NCBI GenBank assembly: GCA_031370005.1
Contig: JANMPT010000039.1
Location: forward strand, 1 to 64,000
Length of the DNA stretch: 64,000 bases
Source of the DNA: Bdellovibrionales bacterium
Lineage (GTDB): Bacteria > Bdellovibrionota > Bdellovibrionia > Bdellovibrionales > Bdellovibrionaceae
Direction: 5' to 3'
The notes under the pieces were generated by a model. It had not been told where the DNA came from. It was given only the letters and a program-made list of their open reading frames with translations, and did no database searches. Below are positions 18,513-54,475 of the stretch, piece by piece. Position 1 is the stretch's first letter. Each line of letters begins with the position of its first letter. Position numbers and translations under genes: made by a program.

Positions 18513-18926
18513 ATGGGCGAAGACGGTAGTAGTATTAGTAGCAGATCAAGAGTAAAAAATTTAAAAAATGAATGGGCACTTTTCTGGGAGAGCATCGCAG
18601 GCGAAGGTCAAGAGGCTAACAGCTTTGAGACTGGCAGGTTGGAGGTTCTTAATCCAGATCAACTTCGAGACATCATCAAAGCATTAAGCCAAGATCGTAA
18701 GCGCTTAAACCAAAAACTAGAGTCTCTTCATAAAGAGCTGGAGCTTAATTCTGCTAAGTTGGAAAGCATCCGTCTAGTGGGTGGTGAGGATGATGAAACT
18801 CTCAAGAGAATTAATGAGCTGAGTGACATTGGCCAGATTTTAAGCGAGCAACTTAACAAACTAGACGAAAAAATTAAGTGGACCAGAGTTCGCCAAGAAG
18901 AGGTTCAGGCCGAGCCTAGAGTATAG
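18513..18926 (+). CDS. Hypothetical coiled-coil protein
   Basis: 137-aa ORF, GAGGAG upstream, heptad-rich. Confidence 0.7.
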   Translation: MGEDGSSISSRSRVKNLKNEWALFWESIAGEGQEANSFETGRLEVLNPDQLRDIIKALSQDRKRLNQKLESLHKELELNSAKLESIRLVGGEDDETLKRINELSDIGQILSEQLNKLDEKIKWTRVRQEEVQAEPRV

Positions 18927-19004
18927 TCTAGGCCTGCTTTTCTGCCGCTTTTGGTCGCGGATTTTTTCTTTTTCAGAGGATCCCAGACTCCAGTTTCCGA
19001 GCCC

Positions 19005-19069: not shown

Positions 19070-20758
19070 ATGTCGTTCAATTATCACAAAAATAAAGAAG
19101 GACATTCACAAGACAATTTTTGGACGTCTTATTCAGATCTCTTTTTGGGTCTGAGTACGATCTTTTTATTGTTGTATGTGATTTCTAGTCTTCGAACAAG
19201 CACAGACGCGATTCGTACACAAGTTGAGTCCCAAAAGCTCTCTATGGAAGTTAATGAGCTAAAGGGACAGCTCCAAATGTATGAGAACGTGAAAAATGAG
19301 TATATGAACAATGCCCCAAAGGATGAGGTTCAAGAGTACCAAGAGCTGATGGATAAGCTAACACTTTTGCAGGAAGATGCAAAAACGGAAAAAGATAAGC
19401 TAGTTGAGCAGGCTGTAGAAAACGACAAGAAAGCGAAAGCCCTTAATAAGTATCAACAGATGGTTCGCAATGTGATGAACGCCAACAAGATGGCGAAGTC
19501 AAAAATTGTGAATCGGGATGATCTAATTAAAGACCAAGACGTGACAATCGAGACCAAAGACAACGAAATTGGTGATTTACAAAAAGATATCCAACAGAAA
19601 AAACATTTGATAGCTGAAGGCGAAAGAAAAATCGACGACGCTAATAATTATTTGAAATCAAAAGCCATCGAGTTGAAACAGGCATTGCGGACCAATAAGA
19701 TTTCCAAACAAAGATATAATGCGCGTATGGCTCAAGTCCGTGCAGAGAACGACAAGCGTGTGAATCAATTGGCCTTGGCAAACGAAAAGTATTCAGAGCA
19801 GCTTGAAGCAACAACTGGCCAACTAAAGCAAGTTAGCACTCAGTTAAATCAAACGAATAGTCAATTGGCTCAAACCCAGGGGGCCCTCGCACAAAAAGAA
19901 GGCGAGGCTCGTGGTCTCTATGGCGAGTTACAAAAACAAGCGGCTGAAGGTCAGGCAAAGATTACTGGACTCCAGGCAGGTTTTGCGGCTGAGAAGGCGC
20001 GTGAGCGTGCATTGTTTGATTCGCAACTTGGAAAAAATAAAGCAATGGGTGCCGCAGAAAGAGCTCGCCGGGAAGGCCAATTTAAGGCAGCGATGGCGGC
20101 AAAGGAGCGTGAGCTAGGCGGCAAGTTGGCCGCTCTCGGCGGTCAATTAAAAAATACAGAAGGCCAGTTGGCAAAAGCTAAAGCAGAAATCGAAGCCCGC
20201 AAGTCTGTCGCAGACGAAGTTAAAAAGGGTTTTGCTAGAGCAGGAATCAAGGCTGATATTGATATGGAGACCGGCGATGTCGTTCTTGATTTTGGTCAAG
20301 CATATTTTGATAGCGACTCAGATCACCTCAAAAACGAAATGAAAAATGTTCTTGAAAAAGCCATGCCAATATACTCGAGGTCATTATTTGGTAATCCTAA
20401 GATCTCTGATAAAATTTCAGCAGTTGAGATTGTCGGCTTTGCTTCGCCGACCTATAAAGGGCGGTTCATCGACCCGAAGAGTCCCAATCCCGAGGACAAA
20501 CAGGCTATCAAATATAATATGGATTTAAGCTATCGACGTGCCAATGCAATTTTTGGATATGTTTTGGACGACAATAATATGAAATTTCAGCATCAAAAAG
20601 AGTTGGTTTCTTTAATGAAAGTATCGGGGCGAAGTTTTTTGGAAACCTTGCCTGCGGGTAACAGAAATGTGGCTAATGCGAATGAGTTTTGTAAGCAGAA
20701 TGATTGCAAAAAAGCACAAAGAGTCATTATTCGATTTAATGTGGATCAAAAAAAATAA
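19070..20758 (+). CDS. MotB/ZorB-like membrane protein with long coiled coil and C-terminal OmpA-like domain
   Basis: FWTSYSDLFLGL TM with conserved Asp23; roughly 340 aa coiled coil; FDSDS..VEIVGFAS..NMDLSYRRA..QRVIIRF. Confidence 0.8.
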   Translation: MSFNYHKNKEGHSQDNFWTSYSDLFLGLSTIFLLLYVISSLRTSTDAIRTQVESQKLSMEVNELKGQLQMYENVKNEYMNNAPKDEVQEYQELMDKLTLLQEDAKTEKDKLVEQAVENDKKAKALNKYQQMVRNVMNANKMAKSKIVNRDDLIKDQDVTIETKDNEIGDLQKDIQQKKHLIAEGERKIDDANNYLKSKAIELKQALRTNKISKQRYNARMAQVRAENDKRVNQLALANEKYSEQLEATTGQLKQVSTQLNQTNSQLAQTQGALAQKEGEARGLYGELQKQAAEGQAKITGLQAGFAAEKARERALFDSQLGKNKAMGAAERARREGQFKAAMAAKERELGGKLAALGGQLKNTEGQLAKAKAEIEARKSVADEVKKGFARAGIKADIDMETGDVVLDFGQAYFDSDSDHLKNEMKNVLEKAMPIYSRSLFGNPKISDKISAVEIVGFASPTYKGRFIDPKSPNPEDKQAIKYNMDLSYRRANAIFGYVLDDNNMKFQHQKELVSLMKVSGRSFLETLPAGNRNVANANEFCKQNDCKKAQRVIIRFNVDQKK

Positions 20759-20770
20759 AAGAGGTGTGTT

Positions 20771-21700
20771 GTGAATGCTAAAACAATCGCAGAATATTTT
20801 ATAATATGCCTGCCCTATGCAATGGCGAGTGTGTTTGTTTGTGGAGTCGCTTTCCGTGCGATTATCTATTATACAGTTCGACGTCATGAGTGGTTTGCTC
20901 GTGAATTCGAAAAACGCGTCAATCGTTTCATGGAAACCGAAGTGCCAGGAAGAGCCCAAGGCGTTTCTTTCTTCGTTCTTTCAAAAAGAATGCTAGAAAG
21001 GACCTACTATGAGGTATTTGAGATCCGAGATCGCATGAAAAGAAGAAGACCTGATATTATGATGAGCTGGAGTGACCGCCTCTTTTTGGTAAAACAAGGC
21101 TGCGCTTGGCTAGTGAAAGACATCTTAAAGCAAATAAAGTTCTTAAAATGGACGGAGGACACTCCGAAGCTATTAAATATTACAAAAGCAACTCTTCAAC
21201 ACAACCCGTGCTTTAACCGCGTTTTCGGTGTTTTTCCAATGGTTGGGCTAAATGATATTATTTCGATTCTTCCAGGGCTTTTTGTAGTTGCCGGTATCCT
21301 GGGTACTTTCATCGGGATTTCAAGTGGATTGAACGACTTGGGGGGAATGAATCTTCAGGATTTGGAAAACACTAAAAATATCATGGATAAGTTCCTTCAC
21401 GAGATTTCTTTCGCAATGAAGTCATCCATTGTGGGGATTGTACTTTCGTTATTAAGCCACGTGGTAAACACAATGATGTCTCCGGAAAGATCTTACGTTT
21501 CCATGGTCGACCGCTTTGAAAGTGCGATGGATCTTCTTTGGTATCGCAGCGATAACAACGAATATCCTGCGGATAATAAACCATTTGATGAACACAAGGA
21601 CGCTGTTGATGCACTAGCTGAAGATGCGTTAAATAAAGAAATTAACAGAGGTATGAGAACTCGCGAAATGCTTGAGGTCCGTAAACCGAAAGCATCTTAG
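20771..21700 (+). CDS. MotA/TolQ/ExbB (ZorA-like) ion-channel subunit
   Basis: N-terminal TM plus LPGLFVVAGILGTFIGI and FAMKSSIVGI helices; GTG start with GAGG RBS. Confidence 0.8.
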   Translation: MNAKTIAEYFIICLPYAMASVFVCGVAFRAIIYYTVRRHEWFAREFEKRVNRFMETEVPGRAQGVSFFVLSKRMLERTYYEVFEIRDRMKRRRPDIMMSWSDRLFLVKQGCAWLVKDILKQIKFLKWTEDTPKLLNITKATLQHNPCFNRVFGVFPMVGLNDIISILPGLFVVAGILGTFIGISSGLNDLGGMNLQDLENTKNIMDKFLHEISFAMKSSIVGIVLSLLSHVVNTMMSPERSYVSMVDRFESAMDLLWYRSDNNEYPADNKPFDEHKDAVDALAEDALNKEINRGMRTREMLEVRKPKAS

Positions 21701-21728
21701 CTAGCTCTTATGTTATGGGAACTAAAAG

Positions 21729-24041
21729 ATGTTGAATACTGTTTGTCGCTATACAGTTAAGGTCCATCGAAAGGACCAAACAATGATAAAAATCGTGAAT
21801 GAATCCTCATTCACGATTGGTCGTTCCATGGACTGTACAATTCCACTAACAGAAGACAGCATTAGCCGCGTGCATATCGTCGTACATCGTCGTCAAGATC
21901 AGATTTGGATTGAGGATAAAGGCTCTTCCAATGGAACATTTGTGAATAATGTTCGTATCGCGCAAAATTCTTTAGTGAATGTGGTCGCCAATGATCGCAT
22001 TCGCGTAGGTAAATCAGATTACATTGTTAGTATCGCTCTTGAGGTTGTAGAAAAAGAAGACGGGTCTCCAAAAACGGTAGGCAACGCCGAAGAAACAGAA
22101 CTGCTCAGTGCGAAACAGGCACTTCAGCCGACCTTAATGCCGAAAGACAAAGCTGCGATAAAATCAGAGCAACGACCCGAGCGTCTTGAGCCAAAGCAAG
22201 AGGCAAAAGCGAAAAATGAAGCTCCTGAGTATAATAATGATCATCCGCAGTTTGAAGGCGAAAGAATTATTCACGAGGCGCACAAAAAGGCGGCACAAAT
22301 TATTTATGACGGCGAGGTGCAGGCTGAAAAGAGAGTTCAGGCCATTCACATTGAGGCCCGTGATCGTCAGGCACAAGCAGAGATTTTCTATAAAAAGAAA
22401 ATTTATGAGGCCCACAAAGAGGCTGATAATATTCTTATTACCTTTCAAAAGCAGGGCCAAGAACTTCTGGAACAGGCAAGACAATTGGCACACGAAATTC
22501 GTGATGAGATCGACTTGTTCTCTCAAAATCTTCGAGAGAAAGCTCGTAAGGAAGCGGAAGAAATTAGCGATGAGGCACGCCAAGAGGCCGAGCTGCTGAA
22601 GCAAGAGGCCTACGAGAAAGCCCGAAGCAAAGCGGAGATCGAAGCCGAAGACCTGGTTGTAAGCGCCAATGCGGAGTCTCAAGATATTTTGAACTTTGCG
22701 ACACAGCAAGCTGCCGCAATGCTAACGAAAGCCCGCACCGAAATGGAATCAGAGCTGCAGGGTCTTAAAGAACAGCTTGAGGAAAAGAAAAAGAACCTCA
22801 GCATTTTCAAAAAAGAACAAGAAGAGTTTAATATAAAAGCCCTTGGTGACCAAGAAGAGTTAGAAAGAAAGATTTTGGAGTCCAAGAGTGAGTATCAAGC
22901 ACTCTTTGAACAACTTGAAAAGGCACAACGCGAACTTAGGGAAGCGCGTACTGAGGATGGCAATCTTCAAGAAAAAATACGAGATCAGAAGAAGGCTAGT
23001 GCTGAGTTGGAACACCAAATTGGCCAACTTTACGGAGATACAAAGACTCTTGAGAGAAAAAACAAAGAGCTACAGGAGCATTTGGGTCACTTTAGTTTAG
23101 ATATTCAGGCGGCGGAAGAAAAAAAGAAAATGATGGAAAACGATTTAACTCAACAAAAGGCACTTCTTAGTGAGCGTCTTGAAAAAGAAAGCCAACAAAT
23201 AATTAATGAGTCAGAAGAACGGATTCAGGAATCCCAACTAGAGATGAACAAACGCTTGCAAAAGCTTGAACGCGAAATGTTAGAAGAGATCATGGGTCGT
23301 AAAGAAACCTTGGTTAAAGACATCATCGTAATTATCGAAACGCGCATTGCGAAGGTTTTAGAGCCTGCGAAATGGGATCTGGTTTCGAGTCAAATTTTTG
23401 AAGGCATTTCTGAGACTCTCGAAGGAAAGTCAGTTAGTTTCAGCGAAAATACAAAGGCGCCAAAGCAGTCGGCTTCTTTACAAAGAAAGAAAAAGAGAGA
23501 TAACCTTCGTTGGATGACAGGTGGAATCACGGCTGGAATTGTTGTTTCTTTCTTAGGGTTACATACTTACAGTAGAATTTTGAGAGATAAGAGCCCAATG
23601 AGAACGATTGCGGCTGAGGAAAGTCGCAAGCGGCAAGAGGATCTTGATCGTCGCAAGTTTAATCCGACTCAGGTGACTGAGATTAAAGATACCTATACAG
23701 ATGCAGTTATTTACACCTCAGGCTTTGTGGCGGCATATCAAAATCCAGTATATCAGCAGAAGCTTTATAAAGCCGCGTCCGCATATTTGTTAAAAACTTG
23801 GCGTGTGGATGAAGACAAATCTATTCAAGTACTTTCAATGTCAAGTGCCTTGATCAAAGAGTTGAATGACAGGAGACAAAGCATTCATCCCGATTATATC
23901 AAAGATGGTATTGCAAAAATGCACGCACTTGAAAAAGAAAGTTTAGATAGGATGAAGATTCTTTTGGGCTCAGAAGTACGCCTAGAGTCTTACCGACGGT
24001 TCGAAAGAAAATTTTTCGAATCCGAGATTCTAAGGAAATAA
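21729..24041 (+). CDS. FHA-domain, long coiled-coil, single-TM protein
   Basis: FHA motifs IGR, SRVH, SSNGT; E/K/A-rich heptads; TM WMTGGITAGIVVSFLGL near the C-terminus. Confidence 0.85.
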   Translation: MLNTVCRYTVKVHRKDQTMIKIVNESSFTIGRSMDCTIPLTEDSISRVHIVVHRRQDQIWIEDKGSSNGTFVNNVRIAQNSLVNVVANDRIRVGKSDYIVSIALEVVEKEDGSPKTVGNAEETELLSAKQALQPTLMPKDKAAIKSEQRPERLEPKQEAKAKNEAPEYNNDHPQFEGERIIHEAHKKAAQIIYDGEVQAEKRVQAIHIEARDRQAQAEIFYKKKIYEAHKEADNILITFQKQGQELLEQARQLAHEIRDEIDLFSQNLREKARKEAEEISDEARQEAELLKQEAYEKARSKAEIEAEDLVVSANAESQDILNFATQQAAAMLTKARTEMESELQGLKEQLEEKKKNLSIFKKEQEEFNIKALGDQEELERKILESKSEYQALFEQLEKAQRELREARTEDGNLQEKIRDQKKASAELEHQIGQLYGDTKTLERKNKELQEHLGHFSLDIQAAEEKKKMMENDLTQQKALLSERLEKESQQIINESEERIQESQLEMNKRLQKLEREMLEEIMGRKETLVKDIIVIIETRIAKVLEPAKWDLVSSQIFEGISETLEGKSVSFSENTKAPKQSASLQRKKKRDNLRWMTGGITAGIVVSFLGLHTYSRILRDKSPMRTIAAEESRKRQEDLDRRKFNPTQVTEIKDTYTDAVIYTSGFVAAYQNPVYQQKLYKAASAYLLKTWRVDEDKSIQVLSMSSALIKELNDRRQSIHPDYIKDGIAKMHALEKESLDRMKILLGSEVRLESYRRFERKFFESEILRK

Positions 24042-29953: not shown

Positions 29954-31129
29954 TCAATTTTTAACCGTCAAGTTGCCCTTGGCAGTGACACTAAGGGCTT
30001 CAATCATTTGCGGCAAATCAAAGATGTTTACGAATTGAATAGTCAGTTTTTTATTTTTAACGACTCTTGTTCTTGAATCCGATGTCACGACCCAGTTCGG
30101 CCCCTTTGAATAGCTTTTTCTAAAAATATAAAGATTGTCATCTTCAAAGTGCTTCTCTTGCCACTTGCATTCAATAGAAAGAACTGTGTCCCGAGCTAAA
30201 GGCAGTACAAAATCAATCTCGTGCTGATTTTTTGTTCGCCAATAATGGAGCTGATTTCCATGTCCCTGAGATTGAAAAGTTTCAAGGACTAGGTTTTCCA
30301 GGTAGACACCGTAGTCTTCGTTGCGAGGCTCGTGGATTCCTTTTACAAAACAACTAAATCCCGTGTCAAATCCATATACTTTTGGCTGGCTAACAATTTC
30401 CTGTAATGGGTTGGTAGAAAATGGCTTTAGGAGACTTATCGTCTTGGTGCTTTCTAAAATATCAAGGTATTTAATTGTTGTGGGTCTTGTTACTCCGCTG
30501 GCTTGCGCTAACTTCGTGATTTCAAACTGGCTTCCGTTAGCAATGAGTAAGTACTCAAGAACTTTCAAAAACGGTTGTCGCTTTTCGACAGCAAAAAGCT
30601 CTTGGACATCTCGGGCATAAAACGAATCCATCCACTCGGAAAAAAAATCGTTATCCACGTTTTCGCCTAATAAAGATGGCGGAAGACCCCCATGTAAAAT
30701 CCTTTTTTTAAGTGTGCTGCGAAAGTCTGCAAGTTCACTAACCAGAACTGGTAAAAAGTGAAGATTTCTTTTTCGATCAGTAAGGGAGTCCTTAAACTTC
30801 TTACTAGCAATCAAGGTGGATGAACCTGTAGCGAGTATTTTTTTATCTTTAAAATGATCAGCGCCTATTTTCAAAAGCATGGAGGCTTCGGGAAGTTGAT
30901 GAATTTCGTCAAATATGACAGTTTTCGTTTTGAGATTTTTATAAAAATCTTCGGGGTCTTCAAGACGTTTTTGTTCGCTAGGGAGATCGCAGTTGATAAA
31001 GGTGGAATCAGGGATAGAAGCGGCAAGAGTTGTCTTACCAGAGCGACGGACGCCAGCGAGCCATACGATGGGCCTTTTCGACCAGGATTTCTGTATTTTT
31101 TGAAGCCAAAATGTCCTCTTTATATCCAT
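29954..31129 (-). CDS. AAA_14 ATPase with DUF4143 and C-terminal PD-(D/E)xK-like motif
   Basis: GVRRSGKT, FDEIH, TGSS, GGLP, PKVYGFDTG, EIDFV..IECK. Confidence 0.9.
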   Translation of the reverse strand: MDIKRTFWLQKIQKSWSKRPIVWLAGVRRSGKTTLAASIPDSTFINCDLPSEQKRLEDPEDFYKNLKTKTVIFDEIHQLPEASMLLKIGADHFKDKKILATGSSTLIASKKFKDSLTDRKRNLHFLPVLVSELADFRSTLKKRILHGGLPPSLLGENVDNDFFSEWMDSFYARDVQELFAVEKRQPFLKVLEYLLIANGSQFEITKLAQASGVTRPTTIKYLDILESTKTISLLKPFSTNPLQEIVSQPKVYGFDTGFSCFVKGIHEPRNEDYGVYLENLVLETFQSQGHGNQLHYWRTKNQHEIDFVLPLARDTVLSIECKWQEKHFEDDNLYIFRKSYSKGPNWVVTSDSRTRVVKNKKLTIQFVNIFDLPQMIEALSVTAKGNLTVKN

Positions 31130-44263: not shown

Positions 44264-45415
44264 ATGAAGTTCATAATAGAAGCCGCTTTTGTCAAAGAGC
44301 TCCGGGAGAATCTGAAGGATAGTCCTCAATTTTTGCAGGTGGTCCTTGGGCCCCGCCAGGTTGGAAAAACAACGGGTGTTTTGCAGCTTTTAAAGAATAG
44401 CCAATCTGAAAGTCTTTATTATTCTGCCGATGAGGAGGTCTCTCCATCTGCAAATTGGATTGAGGAAAAGTGGCAGGGGATTTTCTTAAAGCATCCCAAT
44501 GGGGTACTGGTCCTTGATGAGATTCAGAAAATTCCGGATTGGTCTTCTGTGGTTAAGAGGGTTTGGGATAGGCAAAAAAAAAATGGTAAATCGAATATCA
44601 AGCTTATTCTACTGGGCTCGAGTTCTTTGCAAATTCAGAAAGGACTAAGCGAAAGCCTGAGCGGTCGATTTCAGCTGGTTCGTGCAGTACACTGGGATAT
44701 TGCTAGATCCGAAAAACTTGTGAAGATGGGTGTTGATGGCTTTATTCGGTTTGGCGGCTATCCAGGTTCTTACCCTTTGATTTCTAAGCCTCAGCAGTGG
44801 GAAAAATATATCCGTGATTCAATTATAGAGACCGTGATTGGGAAGGATATTCTTCATATCGCGCGGGTTAATAAACCCGCTCTTTTTCGCCAGGTATTTG
44901 GAATATTGATGTCTTATCCCGCCCAGGAAATTAGCTATACAAAACTTCTTGGCCAGCTGCAGGATTCAGGAAATACTGACCTGGTAAAGCATTACTTAGA
45001 GCTTTATGAGGGAGCCTATTTAATAAAAGCCCTTCAAAAATATTCGGGAAAATCCATAGTCACAAGGTCCTCCTCGCCAAAATTAATTCCACTTTGCGGG
45101 GCGCTCATTGATCGTCGTCTTTTGAAAAGTGAGGAGGGCTACGGGCGAGCTTTTGAGGCCGCAGTGGGGGCGTGCCTTGTTAACAATGAACTAGAAATAT
45201 TTTATTGGCGCGAGGGCAACCTAGAAGTGGATTATGTCGTTCTTTACGCAGGTGACATTTTCGCGATTGAGGTGAAGTCCGGTCGAAAAAAATCCTCTAA
45301 AGGCCTCAATGAGTTCGCGAAAAGATTTAAAACGGCAAAAAAAGTTTATATAACCAATGACAATATCGAGAAGTTTTTAACGAATCCAAAAATATTTTTA
45401 GAGGCATTAACATAG
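44264..45415 (+). CDS. AAA_14 ATPase with DUF4143 and PD-(D/E)xK-like C-terminus
   Basis: GPRQVGKT, LDEIQ, LGSS, ESLSGR, GGYP, SPK, EVDYV..IEVK. Confidence 0.9.
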   Translation: MKFIIEAAFVKELRENLKDSPQFLQVVLGPRQVGKTTGVLQLLKNSQSESLYYSADEEVSPSANWIEEKWQGIFLKHPNGVLVLDEIQKIPDWSSVVKRVWDRQKKNGKSNIKLILLGSSSLQIQKGLSESLSGRFQLVRAVHWDIARSEKLVKMGVDGFIRFGGYPGSYPLISKPQQWEKYIRDSIIETVIGKDILHIARVNKPALFRQVFGILMSYPAQEISYTKLLGQLQDSGNTDLVKHYLELYEGAYLIKALQKYSGKSIVTRSSSPKLIPLCGALIDRRLLKSEEGYGRAFEAAVGACLVNNELEIFYWREGNLEVDYVVLYAGDIFAIEVKSGRKKSSKGLNEFAKRFKTAKKVYITNDNIEKFLTNPKIFLEALT

Positions 45416-52472: not shown

Positions 52473-53429
52473 CTAGTAGATTTTACACGCTTCGGCGGCC
52501 TCAATGAGAGCACTTTTGGTATCTGGTTCGGAAGCCGCGTGACCGGCACTTGAAGTGAATCGAAGTTCTGCTTCGGGCCAAGCCTTATGCAGGTCCCAAG
52601 CGCTGCGGGCAGGACAGACTATGTCGTAACGACCCTGTACTATAAAGCCTGGAATATGGCGAATTTTATGAACATTTTCGAGAATCCAATTGTTCGTAGG
52701 GAAGAAGGCATTATTCACAAAATAATGGCACTCGATGCTTGCAAATGAAATTGCGAAGTCTGGGTCATCAAATTCATCAATTGCTTTGCGGCTTACAATT
52801 AATCTAGAGGTCGCAGCTTCCCACTTGCTCCAAGCTTTTGCGGCCTCTAACTGTGTCGTGTAATTAGTATCTGTCAAACGTTTGTAATAGGCCTTTACGA
52901 GTTGGTTTTGCTCTACCTTTGGAATGGGTTTAAGGTACTCATCCCAAATATCTGGAAAAATATGGGAAGCTCCATCCTGGTAAAACCAATGAATTTCAGA
53001 AGGACGGCATAAAAAGACCCCGCGCAAAATCAAAGCCGCAGCTCTTTCCGGGTGAGTGATCGCGTAAGTGAGAGCTAAGGTGGAGCCCCAGCTGCCACCA
53101 AAGACGATCCAGCTTTTAATATCGAGGTGAGTACGGATTTTTTCAATATCGCTAATAAGACTCCAGGTATCATTTTCGCGAAGCTCGGCTATCGGGCGGC
53201 TTTTTCCGGAGCCCCGCTGATCAAATAAAATAATGCGATAGTGAGTTGGATCAAAAAAACGGCGGTGTTCAGGGTGTATGCCGCCGCCAGGTCCGCCATG
53301 AAGAAATACAATTGGCCGCCCCTTTGGATTCCCGACTTGCTCATAATAGAGTTCATGGATATCAGAGACCTTCATGCGGCCTGTTTCATAGGGTTCAATT
53401 TCGGGATAAAATTCGCGCAGTTCTGTCAT
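52473..53429 (-). CDS. pip: Proline iminopeptidase
   Basis: HGGPG, DQRGSG, GGSWG, GRYD, GH; ATGA overlap with add. Confidence 0.94.
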   Translation of the reverse strand: MTELREFYPEIEPYETGRMKVSDIHELYYEQVGNPKGRPIVFLHGGPGGGIHPEHRRFFDPTHYRIILFDQRGSGKSRPIAELRENDTWSLISDIEKIRTHLDIKSWIVFGGSWGSTLALTYAITHPERAAALILRGVFLCRPSEIHWFYQDGASHIFPDIWDEYLKPIPKVEQNQLVKAYYKRLTDTNYTTQLEAAKAWSKWEAATSRLIVSRKAIDEFDDPDFAISFASIECHYFVNNAFFPTNNWILENVHKIRHIPGFIVQGRYDIVCPARSAWDLHKAWPEAELRFTSSAGHAASEPDTKSALIEAAEACKIY

Positions 53430-54475
53430 GGTTGGATTTTTCTCGGCCAAAATTTTTGCCGTTCTTTGAGATCAATAAAACTTACCGAGGCCGCAATGTC
53501 GTTGGCTTTTTTGAAATCTGCAAGGCTAAAACTATGCACTCGGTGAAGAACTTCGTAGTCATCTGAAAGCTGGGTGCCGAAGATTCCCGGATCATCGGAG
53601 TTTATCGTTACCTTAATGCCCGCGTTCATCAGGGAGCGAATTGGATGGTCCTCATGAGTTTTGCAGGCTTGGGTGAGCCAGTTGCTGATGGGACAGACTT
53701 CTAGTGGAATGCCTTTATCGCGGACAAAGCGAAGCACATCTGGGTCATTGATGATTTGAATGCCATGACCGATGCGTTCAGCGCCTAAAATTTCAATTGA
53801 GTCTTTGACCCATTGTGCGGAGAGTGGAGTGTCGGCTTCGCCAGAATGCACGGTGATGTGGAGGCCTGCTTCGCGAGCTTTTAAAAACAAGCCGGTGAAT
53901 TTTTTGGGGTCAAAGCCATCTTCATTGTCAGCGAGATCAATAGCAATGAAACTTTCTTTGTGCTCAATTGCGAAATCGCAAACATTTTTTGCTACTTCAA
54001 TTTGTTTAGTTCTTTGCATAATGCAGATTAAACCTACTGCCATAGGGAAATTTTTCTTTGCAAGGTCTACGCCCTTACAGAAAGATCGATGAATCTTTCC
54101 AAAACTTAGAGAGCTATGACCGTCAGCAATAAAGCTCGGCGCATAGCGAAGTTCTAGAATGCGAACACCCTCATTGTAGGCATCTTCACAGGCCTCATAG
54201 GCTAGGCGAATAAGTATTTCTTCAGAGTGAAGGAGTTTTTGTGCATGTAAAAATTTGCTCAAGACAGCACGAAGGTCCTTCATTTGTCCAGTGACGAGCA
54301 GAAAATCTCTCTGAGCGCTATAATCCTGTGGCAGCTCGAGCCCAACATGAGGGGCAAGCTCAACCATGGTGCTCCAACGCATTGAGCAGTCGAGGTGCCG
54401 ATGCAGTTCTACTTTTGGAAGCGCTTTTAATTCATGAGAATAAATTTTTGTTAAATTCATACTCTCAGATATCAT
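53426..54475 (-). CDS. add: Adenosine deaminase
   Basis: ELHRHLD, ELRYAP, TVHSGE, RIGHG, EVCPISN, NSDDP. Confidence 0.92.
   Translation of the reverse strand: MISESMNLTKIYSHELKALPKVELHRHLDCSMRWSTMVELAPHVGLELPQDYSAQRDFLLVTGQMKDLRAVLSKFLHAQKLLHSEEILIRLAYEACEDAYNEGVRILELRYAPSFIADGHSSLSFGKIHRSFCKGVDLAKKNFPMAVGLICIMQRTKQIEVAKNVCDFAIEHKESFIAIDLADNEDGFDPKKFTGLFLKAREAGLHITVHSGEADTPLSAQWVKDSIEILGAERIGHGIQIINDPDVLRFVRDKGIPLEVCPISNWLTQACKTHEDHPIRSLMNAGIKVTINSDDPGIFGTQLSDDYEVLHRVHSFSLADFKKANDIAASVSFIDLKERQKFWPRKIQP

Follow-up and report, generated by a model that had tools for sequence, protein, structure and literature searches.

To our knowledge, motors of the ZorAB type are known only as phage sensors, and a locus that carries such a motor with no Zor effector beside it raises the question of what the motor does there. 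The locus considered here lies in a stretch of 64,000 nt from a Bdellovibrionales bacterium (assembly GCA_031370005.1, contig JANMPT010000039.1, positions 1 to 64,000), hereafter called the window. It consists of three co-directional genes on the forward strand, separated by gaps of 12 and 28 nt: a ZorB/MotB-type gene of 562 aa (B; 19070..20758), a ZorA-like gene of 309 aa with a GTG start (A; 20771..21700) and a gene for a 770-aa FHA protein (F; 21729..24041). A first-pass annotation had read the trio as an undescribed ion motor with a membrane FHA partner, and the open reading frames (ORFs) are as it described them; B is identified by its translation, PADLOC and Pfam, A by its translation and by profile and fold comparison, and F by its translation and the Pfam FHA family. 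The trio is judged a genuine and so far undescribed variant among the 5:2 motors; its stoichiometry, its ion flux, the binding of F and its function are all predicted. In the reading preferred here, to which a probability of roughly 0.45 is assigned, the three proteins would form an accessory, ZorAB-derived A5B2 ion motor that in B. bacteriovorus is expressed mainly in the attack phase and is dispensable for laboratory predation, senses disturbance of the envelope and sends the signal inward through F.

The A subunit has the transmembrane (TM) fold of MotA, TolQ and ExbB with a polar Thr/Ser ring, three TM helices and a cytoplasmic domain, and it contains the motifs LPG..GILGTFIG and AMKSSIVG noted at first pass. 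The matches to Pfam MotA_ExbB (residues 173-235) and to six ZorA models of NCBIfam (41.9 vs 100 bits) are all under the cut-offs, while 18 PADLOC ZorA models match, and the precomputed family for the protein is PF28082 (ZorA-like_t1, Pfam 38, named in the Atlas). When a profile of A built from 110 rows (A1) was compared with the PDB, only ZorA chains fell below E 0.01 (best E 2.5e-9), and ZorA was also the closest Foldseek match of the structure model (predicted local distance difference test score 86; E 8e-4), the top fold matches being ZorA, TolQ and ExbB. By hand count along the alignment, P168, I176, T179 and S219 correspond to P136, I144, T147 and S184 of E. coli ZorA, which PMC11946911 tested as kink, gate and filter residues. 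T179 is present in 94/94 and S219 in 93/94 rows, and the ZorA Thr/Ser filter is thus kept; as both residues are polar, the conducted ion could be H+ or Na+. D254 and W257 align to ZorA D217 and Y220 (the Ca2+ site between TM3 and the tail), with E86/E89 outside the aligned stretch. The model also places a small beta-hairpin at residues 150-156 in the cytoplasm, where a beta-sheet has been described as Zorya-specific (PMC12505986).

The B subunit consists of a short cytoplasmic N-terminus, one TM helix (residues ~22-41; 19133..19192, +), a long helical periplasmic stalk (residues ~45-375; 19202..20194, +) and a ZorB-type OmpA-like, peptidoglycan-binding domain (20195..20755, +). It matches PADLOC ZorB1 (E 2.6e-31) and the ZorB N-terminus; MotB_plug (8-42) and OmpA (412-504) of Pfam are matched under their cut-offs. 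The motif FWTSYSD23L carries the membrane Asp pointed out in the first-pass annotation (codon 19136-19138), which is the predicted ion-binding residue; in ZorB, the D26N substitution destroys Zorya function (PMC11946911). D23 is found in 60/60 rows of one comparison, and D23, G456, S459, N483 and R490 are unchanged in all 81 aligned B rows; with the A residues given above, this sets chance aside as the source of the motifs. In the PDB, the profile of the C-terminal domain finds type II ZorB first (8vvi_A, E 2.6e-10) and a MotB next (E 0.0016). The annotation had set the GFAS motif of this domain against the usual GHTD, and the motif is indeed there; since GFAS aligns with GHTS of ZorB in the 8vvi_A alignment, however, Ser in place of Asp is already the ZorB pattern, and the local novelty is the change of His to Phe. 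The other signatures of the ZorB-type peptidoglycan site, S459 and R490 (the latter within NxxLSxxRA), are invariant, and the pair Cys541/Cys546, retained in 80/81 rows, fits a periplasmic location.

That the long rod stands on the periplasmic side of B, and not on the tail of A, is borne out by a stalk of ~330 aa and a tail of ~74 aa past TM3. The membrane-proximal part of the stalk (residues ~45-160) is conserved and the part at ~160-360 variable. The distance from the Asp to the GxAS motif is 361-530 aa in 64 F-linked rows and 397-898 aa in 11 other rows. Stalk lengths differ from that of the window's B by a multiple of seven in 26 of the 64 rows, the window included, where about 9 are expected and kin are not independent. 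Coiled coils had been proposed for B and F; the long helical stalk and rod stand, whereas heptads are only partly evident: of ~10 windows along the B stalk, two gave p<0.05 in a crude test, as did three windows of F. As a straight helix, the stalk would measure ~49 nm at 0.15 nm per residue and probably could not stand upright under the wall, since in E. coli the inner membrane and the wall are ~9 nm apart (PMC11946911).

The F protein follows the layout read at first pass, with a cytoplasmic FHA domain (residues 29-94; 21813..22010, +; Pfam E 4.5e-16), a Pro-containing linker, a helical rod (~176-560), a basic stretch, a Gly-rich TM helix (~595-613; 23511..23567, +) and a periplasmic domain of ~157 aa (23568..24038, +) that is all-helical in the structure model and matches no known family. 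The N-terminus is placed in the cytoplasm because the basic stretch, RKKKR, precedes the TM helix. R32, S46, H49 and N68, which we take to be the canonical phospho-threonine-binding set of FHA domains, are all present in 71/78 F proteins; as these residues are intact and the genome holds one Ser/Thr kinase above the Pfam cut-off, coupling to phospho-threonine signalling through F is plausible. F proteins range from 654 to more than 1,200 aa, with a periplasmic part mostly of ~150-175 aa. The TM helix of Ton/Tol transducers carries a conserved His (SHLS motif); the TM regions of the F proteins compared have no conserved His, and their alignment consensus is GxxxG. For the C-terminal domain, no sequence match was found in the PDB, none in the Atlas and no Foldseek match at E<=0.001, and the TonB C-terminal domain is not listed among its fold matches, the best of which are middling. 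VIA returned a CagA domain (Z 8.4, 114 residues aligned, root-mean-square deviation (rmsd) 3.4), the RsbR N-domain (Z 7.8, 91 aligned, rmsd 2.4) and many globins, all within the noise range for helical bundles, and a fold assignment was dropped.

The contact between F and the motor was approached in several ways. A complex prediction with two copies each of A (1-262) and B (1-140) and the TM and C-terminal domain of F scored 0.00 and 0.01, which speaks neither for nor against binding. Docking of the FHA domain on T35 of A (kept in 97% of the rows linked to F and in 25% of those without it) is confounded by relatedness and was not used. The expectation that A would be long wherever F is missing, if F replaced the tail, was rejected, as most F-less A proteins also have 281-341 aa. 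The longest A homologues have Pro- or acid-rich, low-complexity tails, and no A-F fusion occurs among the 23 homologues of at least 370 aa, no dedicated search for longer ones having been run.

The three genes are conserved together. Of 73 GTDB loci, 69 have B before A and 71 have F after it, the exceptions all being places where the contig stops; among the 72 loci with a whole A ORF, an intact F is adjacent in 57, the locus is too short in 12 and F is truncated or split in 3. In 301 genomes of the phylum, A is matched in 125 and the F C-terminal domain in 88, of which 86 strongly. A is present in 84 of these 86, and by hand count every one of the 81 genomes that match A at E<=1.1e-75 also has F. 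Within the family of the window, A and F both occur in 33 of 38 genomes and the same five lack both, a loss confirmed by profile searches with positive controls for B and F. The closed genomes G061, G171 and G230 are without the operon; in G171 and G230, the interval between Rrf2 and FtsY, which is the operon site in other Bdellovibrio, is only 2 kb long, and in G171 it is occupied by a chemoreceptor gene. What has been observed directly is the homology of the proteins, the conservation of the pore residues and the joint retention and loss of the three genes. The trio is a Bdellovibrionota operon widespread in the phylum, so that the B-before-A order noted at first pass holds, while the label 'orphan' and the oddity of that order lose force, Salmonella SiiAB also having its B-type gene first.

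Outside this core, 40 distant loci were picked by hand and are not a random sample; they have F in 20 cases and no F in 17, two being too short and one lacking a whole A, and B precedes A wherever both are present. Six of the most distant B-A pairs have behind them a gene of ~155 aa (L088:6961-7425, L089:6060-6542, L103:7197-7658, L127:6547-7017, L128 and L129), which encodes a cyclic nucleotide monophosphate (cNMP)-binding protein in the three scanned. These pairs belong to a distant paralogue clade without F, often with a GHAS motif and with stalks of up to ~900 aa. As a cNMP-binding gene takes the place of F in these loci, a signalling partner appears to recur. In the family f24, the F-less pairs are preceded by a divergent membrane ankyrin-repeat gene in 3/3 loci checked (L093:8767-11232, L098:2486-4573, L131:8359-10005). 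F-type C-terminal domains also occur in shorter frames of 550-614 aa (G268:C25:25509, G308:C43:155660, G109:C10:18920), in genomes without an A match to a single-sequence query or as a second copy. When 68 A rows were placed in a quick tree, one side of a branch with a support of 66 consisted of the F-linked rows (0/500 shuffles), and the copies of G252 and G086, of family f22, nest within the family of the window and were likely transferred horizontally. In G252, a second FHA-TM gene is convergent on the operon (L112:879-3554).

We infer, on tight evidence, that B, A and F are orthologous to Bd1167, Bd1168 and Bd1169 of B. bacteriovorus. A 301-aa protein that is 77% identical to A (P0085) carries the accessions CAE79081.1 and AHZ86390.1; Bd1168 has 906 nt (301 aa) and Bd1169 2,385 nt (794 aa). 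The published Bd1167 promoter is found letter for letter upstream of B at a locus (L021) whose F has 794 aa, and the order RS15520-RS15565 in the table of strain 109J equals, gene for gene, that of locus L016 (nitroreductase, Rrf2, GNAT, B, A, F, two hypotheticals, DUF4423, FtsY). Since the first genome these genes have been annotated as 'microtubule binding' and 'Ala/Glu-rich', which is regarded here as a misannotation. In print, no description of the trio was found under Bdellovibrio FHA/MotA/OmpA, Bd1165-Bd1170, Zorya, crescentin/Ccrp, SiiAB or effector-less ZorAB, most subscription papers being outside the scope of the search, and the motor is to this extent undescribed, as had been claimed.

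The orthology gives access to published measurements. Karunker 2013 (PMC3627812) reports one transcription start site and one tricistronic transcript for Bd1167-68-69, with no FliA site. Attack-phase expression of Bd1167, Bd1168 and Bd1169 is 932, 1354 and 527 reads per kilobase per million mapped reads vs 35, 23 and 14 in the growth phase, an excess of 26-, 55- and 36-fold (PMC3627812). At 30 min, Bd1167 and Bd1168 are at 0.6-fold and Bd1169 at 0.8 (p 0.06), and Bd1168 is unchanged during host-independent growth (PMC2797640). All three proteins were detected in the proteome (41, 16 and 52 unique peptides), falling by 0.7-1.2 log2 to a minimum at 3-4 h and recovering by 6-7 h (PMC12546842). 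In a transposon screen of pooled mutants of a host-independent strain on two prey species (PMC6561027), the W values across four prey conditions are 1.75-1.88, 1.74-1.98 and 1.51-1.99 for the three genes. On the same page, which is 1 of 68 parts of the table, the other 44 measured genes have a median W of 1.81 (quartiles 1.30-2.25; six ND rows dropped). Genes for predation have W<0.1 in this screen. As the mutants are neutral, the operon is dispensable for axenic growth and for pooled predation in the host-independent strain; a W of ~1.8 was rejected as a gain in fitness because it equals the page median. A link to the 'rose-like complex' of cryo-electron tomography was also rejected, there being no evidence for it. 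Control by FliA was considered, as CGATA stands upstream of B in 23/67 cases vs 7 expected, and dismissed, the mapped Bd1167 promoter having no FliA site; a sigma-70 scan was at chance level (10 vs 8.9 expected).

How such a motor might work can be outlined by analogy with ZorAB and MotAB. Five A subunits would surround a pair of B helices, H+ or Na+ would be conducted by Asp23 together with the T179/S219 ring, and the B domain would grip peptidoglycan and open the channel, with A turning against anchored B. The stalk, being longer than the distance from membrane to wall, would be tilted or folded and could serve as a lever or tether that reports displacement of the envelope. F may dock on the motor within the membrane, in the way modelled for GltG on AglRQS, and its cytoplasmic rod with a phospho-threonine-reading tip may do the job of the missing ZorA tail; these are the weakest steps of the scheme. 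Displacement of the envelope would then pull the B tether, the channel would open and F would carry the state to or from phosphorylated proteins. ZorAB itself has been proposed as an envelope sensor (PMC11946911). A sensor is favoured here because the trio lacks a tail, an effector and a Ton/Tol-type transducer, and because a signalling partner recurs.

The best-surviving alternative, though an unlikely one, is that the trio is a tail-less anti-phage system derived from Zorya, which would sense phage breach in the attack phase and either recruit unlinked effectors through F or depolarise the cell through its channel. Such a system would use much the same mechanics as the envelope sensor, with phage as the trigger. 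The ancestry of A and B agrees with it, as a comparison with E. coli type I (8QYD), Shewanella type I (8VVN) and Sulfuricurvum type II (8VVI) ZorAB makes clear: the A fold, the equivalents of P136, I144, T147 and S184, the helix end equivalent to D217/Y220, the beta-hairpin, the TM Asp of B and a peptidoglycan domain of the GxxS type are all shared. Neutrality of the mutants in the absence of phage, patchy loss, the one likely transfer (G252/G086) and expression while the cell is outside its prey would also suit defence. The differences from Zorya, however, are many. ZorA has a long tail, every truncation of which abolishes Zorya defence according to PMC11946911, whereas the A tail is short; the ZorB domain begins near residue 53, whereas B has its long stalk; and B before A, His to Phe in the peptidoglycan motif, the FHA-TM partner and a stable chromosomal site are found here, with scores far under the NCBIfam cut-offs. 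ZorC, ZorD and ZorE are missing from the operon. In line with what had been noticed at first pass, PADLOC found no Zor effector among the 48 other ORFs of at least 150 aa in the window, and across 112 loci no effector was found and no other neighbour common to more than 10, antisense shadows of the operon aside. A ZorE profile matched 0/5 genomes and its positive control matched; the ZorC profile and PF15611 also gave no match in the genomes, but neither did their control. The operon is mostly single copy, A is 77% identical between the window and B. bacteriovorus, the third-codon-position GC content of the trio resembles that of neighbouring genes, and no match exists among 50,697 phage or 72,556 plasmid records. 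A defence hotspot at the empty site was rejected, as the site is stable and holds a chemoreceptor gene rather than another defence system. The trio thus works like ZorAB and yet fails membership in Zorya on two counts, the tail and the linked effectors.

Two further explanations are improbable, and both are ranked, like the secretion accessory considered after them, below the sensor and defence. In one, the trio is a force machine for prey contact, invasion and exit or for gliding, with F as a transducer like GltG or TolA. Attack-phase expression and presence across predatory Bdellovibrionota would agree with this, as would the FHA-TM proteins beside AglR/TolQ-type genes in the genome; in Myxococcus, GltG is an FHA protein beside AglR-type genes that has been modelled on AglR (PMC11761067), and AglRQS-GltG shares with the trio a 5:2-type motor adjoining a bitopic protein with an N-terminal cytoplasmic FHA domain. 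AglRQS, TolQRA and ExbBD-TonB, however, have an ExbD/TolR domain where B has an OmpA-like domain and no ExbD match, and the F rod is cytoplasmic, its periplasmic part being short and all-helical without a recognisable TonB C-terminal domain or TM His. An essential role in predation, invasion or polar scaffolding, the direction suggested at first pass, is further weakened by the W values of 1.51-1.99 in four conditions, by the closed genomes without the operon and by the eight further MotA/ExbB/TolQ genes elsewhere in the genome. A flagellar motor of the MotAB/PomAB kind shares the TM Asp, the OmpA-like wall anchor and the weak MotB_plug match, but no flagellar neighbour is common to the 112 loci, MotA is not among the top fold matches of A and the genome has separate MotA-family genes. 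In the other explanation, the trio would act as a strut or tether in the periplasm and so stiffen the attack-phase cell, which is small and does not grow, while the channel would only regulate wall attachment. The very long, variable rods of B and F and the peptidoglycan-binding domain would suit a strut, and Bd1167 was called crescentin-like in Lambert 2010 (PMC2797640); that label, however, took no account of the TM helix, the Asp or the OmpA-like domain, active ion use and signalling are implied by the invariance of the pore residues and by the intact FHA domain, and the mutants are neutral. Least probable is an accessory channel that would supply the energy to release or retain a secreted adhesin or a surface fibre encoded elsewhere, as in SiiAB of Salmonella SPI4, a B-type-first, peptidoglycan-binding, proton-conducting, non-flagellar pair with a TM Asp (10.1101/641415), since the type I secretion genes and giant adhesin found there have no counterpart near the operon or common to the 112 loci, the SiiA linker is disordered whereas the B stalk is long and helical, the partner F is an addition and SiiA is not among the PDB matches of the B C-terminal domain profile.

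Several observations weigh against the envelope-sensing motor as well. VIA places ZorA first among the matches of the A model (Z 12.2, 198 residues aligned, rmsd 3.7), ahead of ExbB (11.0) and TolQ (9.8), so that profile, Foldseek and VIA matches all favour the ZorAB-type pair first proposed, but the gap between ZorA and ExbB is small and Z values under ~13 are common for helical folds. The ZorB His position is Phe or Tyr in 71/71 F-linked B proteins; mutation of this residue, H141, disrupts peptidoglycan binding by type II ZorB (PMC11890865), and wall binding by B may therefore differ. The motor can exist without F, which 17 of the 39 distant loci with an A gene lack, and in the closed genome G204, A (C1:2113542) and F (C1:1196384) lie ~0.9 Mb apart, both being kept. 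Neutral mutants show what the operon does not do rather than what it does.

The genes around the operon are of a housekeeping kind (a Pif1-like helicase, RibD, a SpoU methylase and an aromatic amino-acid hydroxylase in a Pfam scan that covered 10 ORFs of the window). Just 5' of B lies a 137-aa helical ORF without a Pfam family (18513-18926, +), kept at ~80% in two close relatives only, with a hairpin at 18914-18933 between it and B. PADLOC matches the ORFs 29954-31129 (-) and 44264-45415 (+) to the candidate system PDC-S01 (E 2e-55 and 5e-130) and the ORF 53426-54475 to a CARF-ADA deaminase model; these may be housekeeping relatives. A further MotA/ExbB/TolQ gene is located 12.7 kb beyond the end of the window. 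Elsewhere, the genome has FHA genes beside clusters of the ExbB/TolQ type, including three tandem FHA genes near an ExbB/ExbD pair (L132:2822-7442; G000:C2) and a TPR-TPR-FHA-TolQ-ExbD-ExbD cluster that resembles Agl-Glt gliding genes (L133:3144-7046; G000:C43).

The trio is a conserved, well-expressed relative of ZorAB whose architecture is rearranged and which has no effector beside it, and it occurs in a predator amenable to genetics. As the genes are identified and the mutants viable, both the role of a Zor motor without Zorya effectors and the recipient of any signal from its rotation are directly testable, although the published neutral fitness means that no simple predation defect is to be expected. 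A wider proposal, tentative and rather doubtful, is that the operon belongs to a phylum-wide, non-defence branch of ZorAB in which the arm has moved from the A tail to the B stalk and the cytoplasmic output is a swappable signalling protein, FHA-rod-TM in the main clade and cNMP-binding in a paralogue clade; this would be a rotary, ion-driven mechanosensor of the envelope wired to protein phosphorylation and possibly a living model of the sensor ancestral to Zorya. A motor like that of the trio would enlarge the known range of 5:2 motors and be relevant to how Zorya arose.

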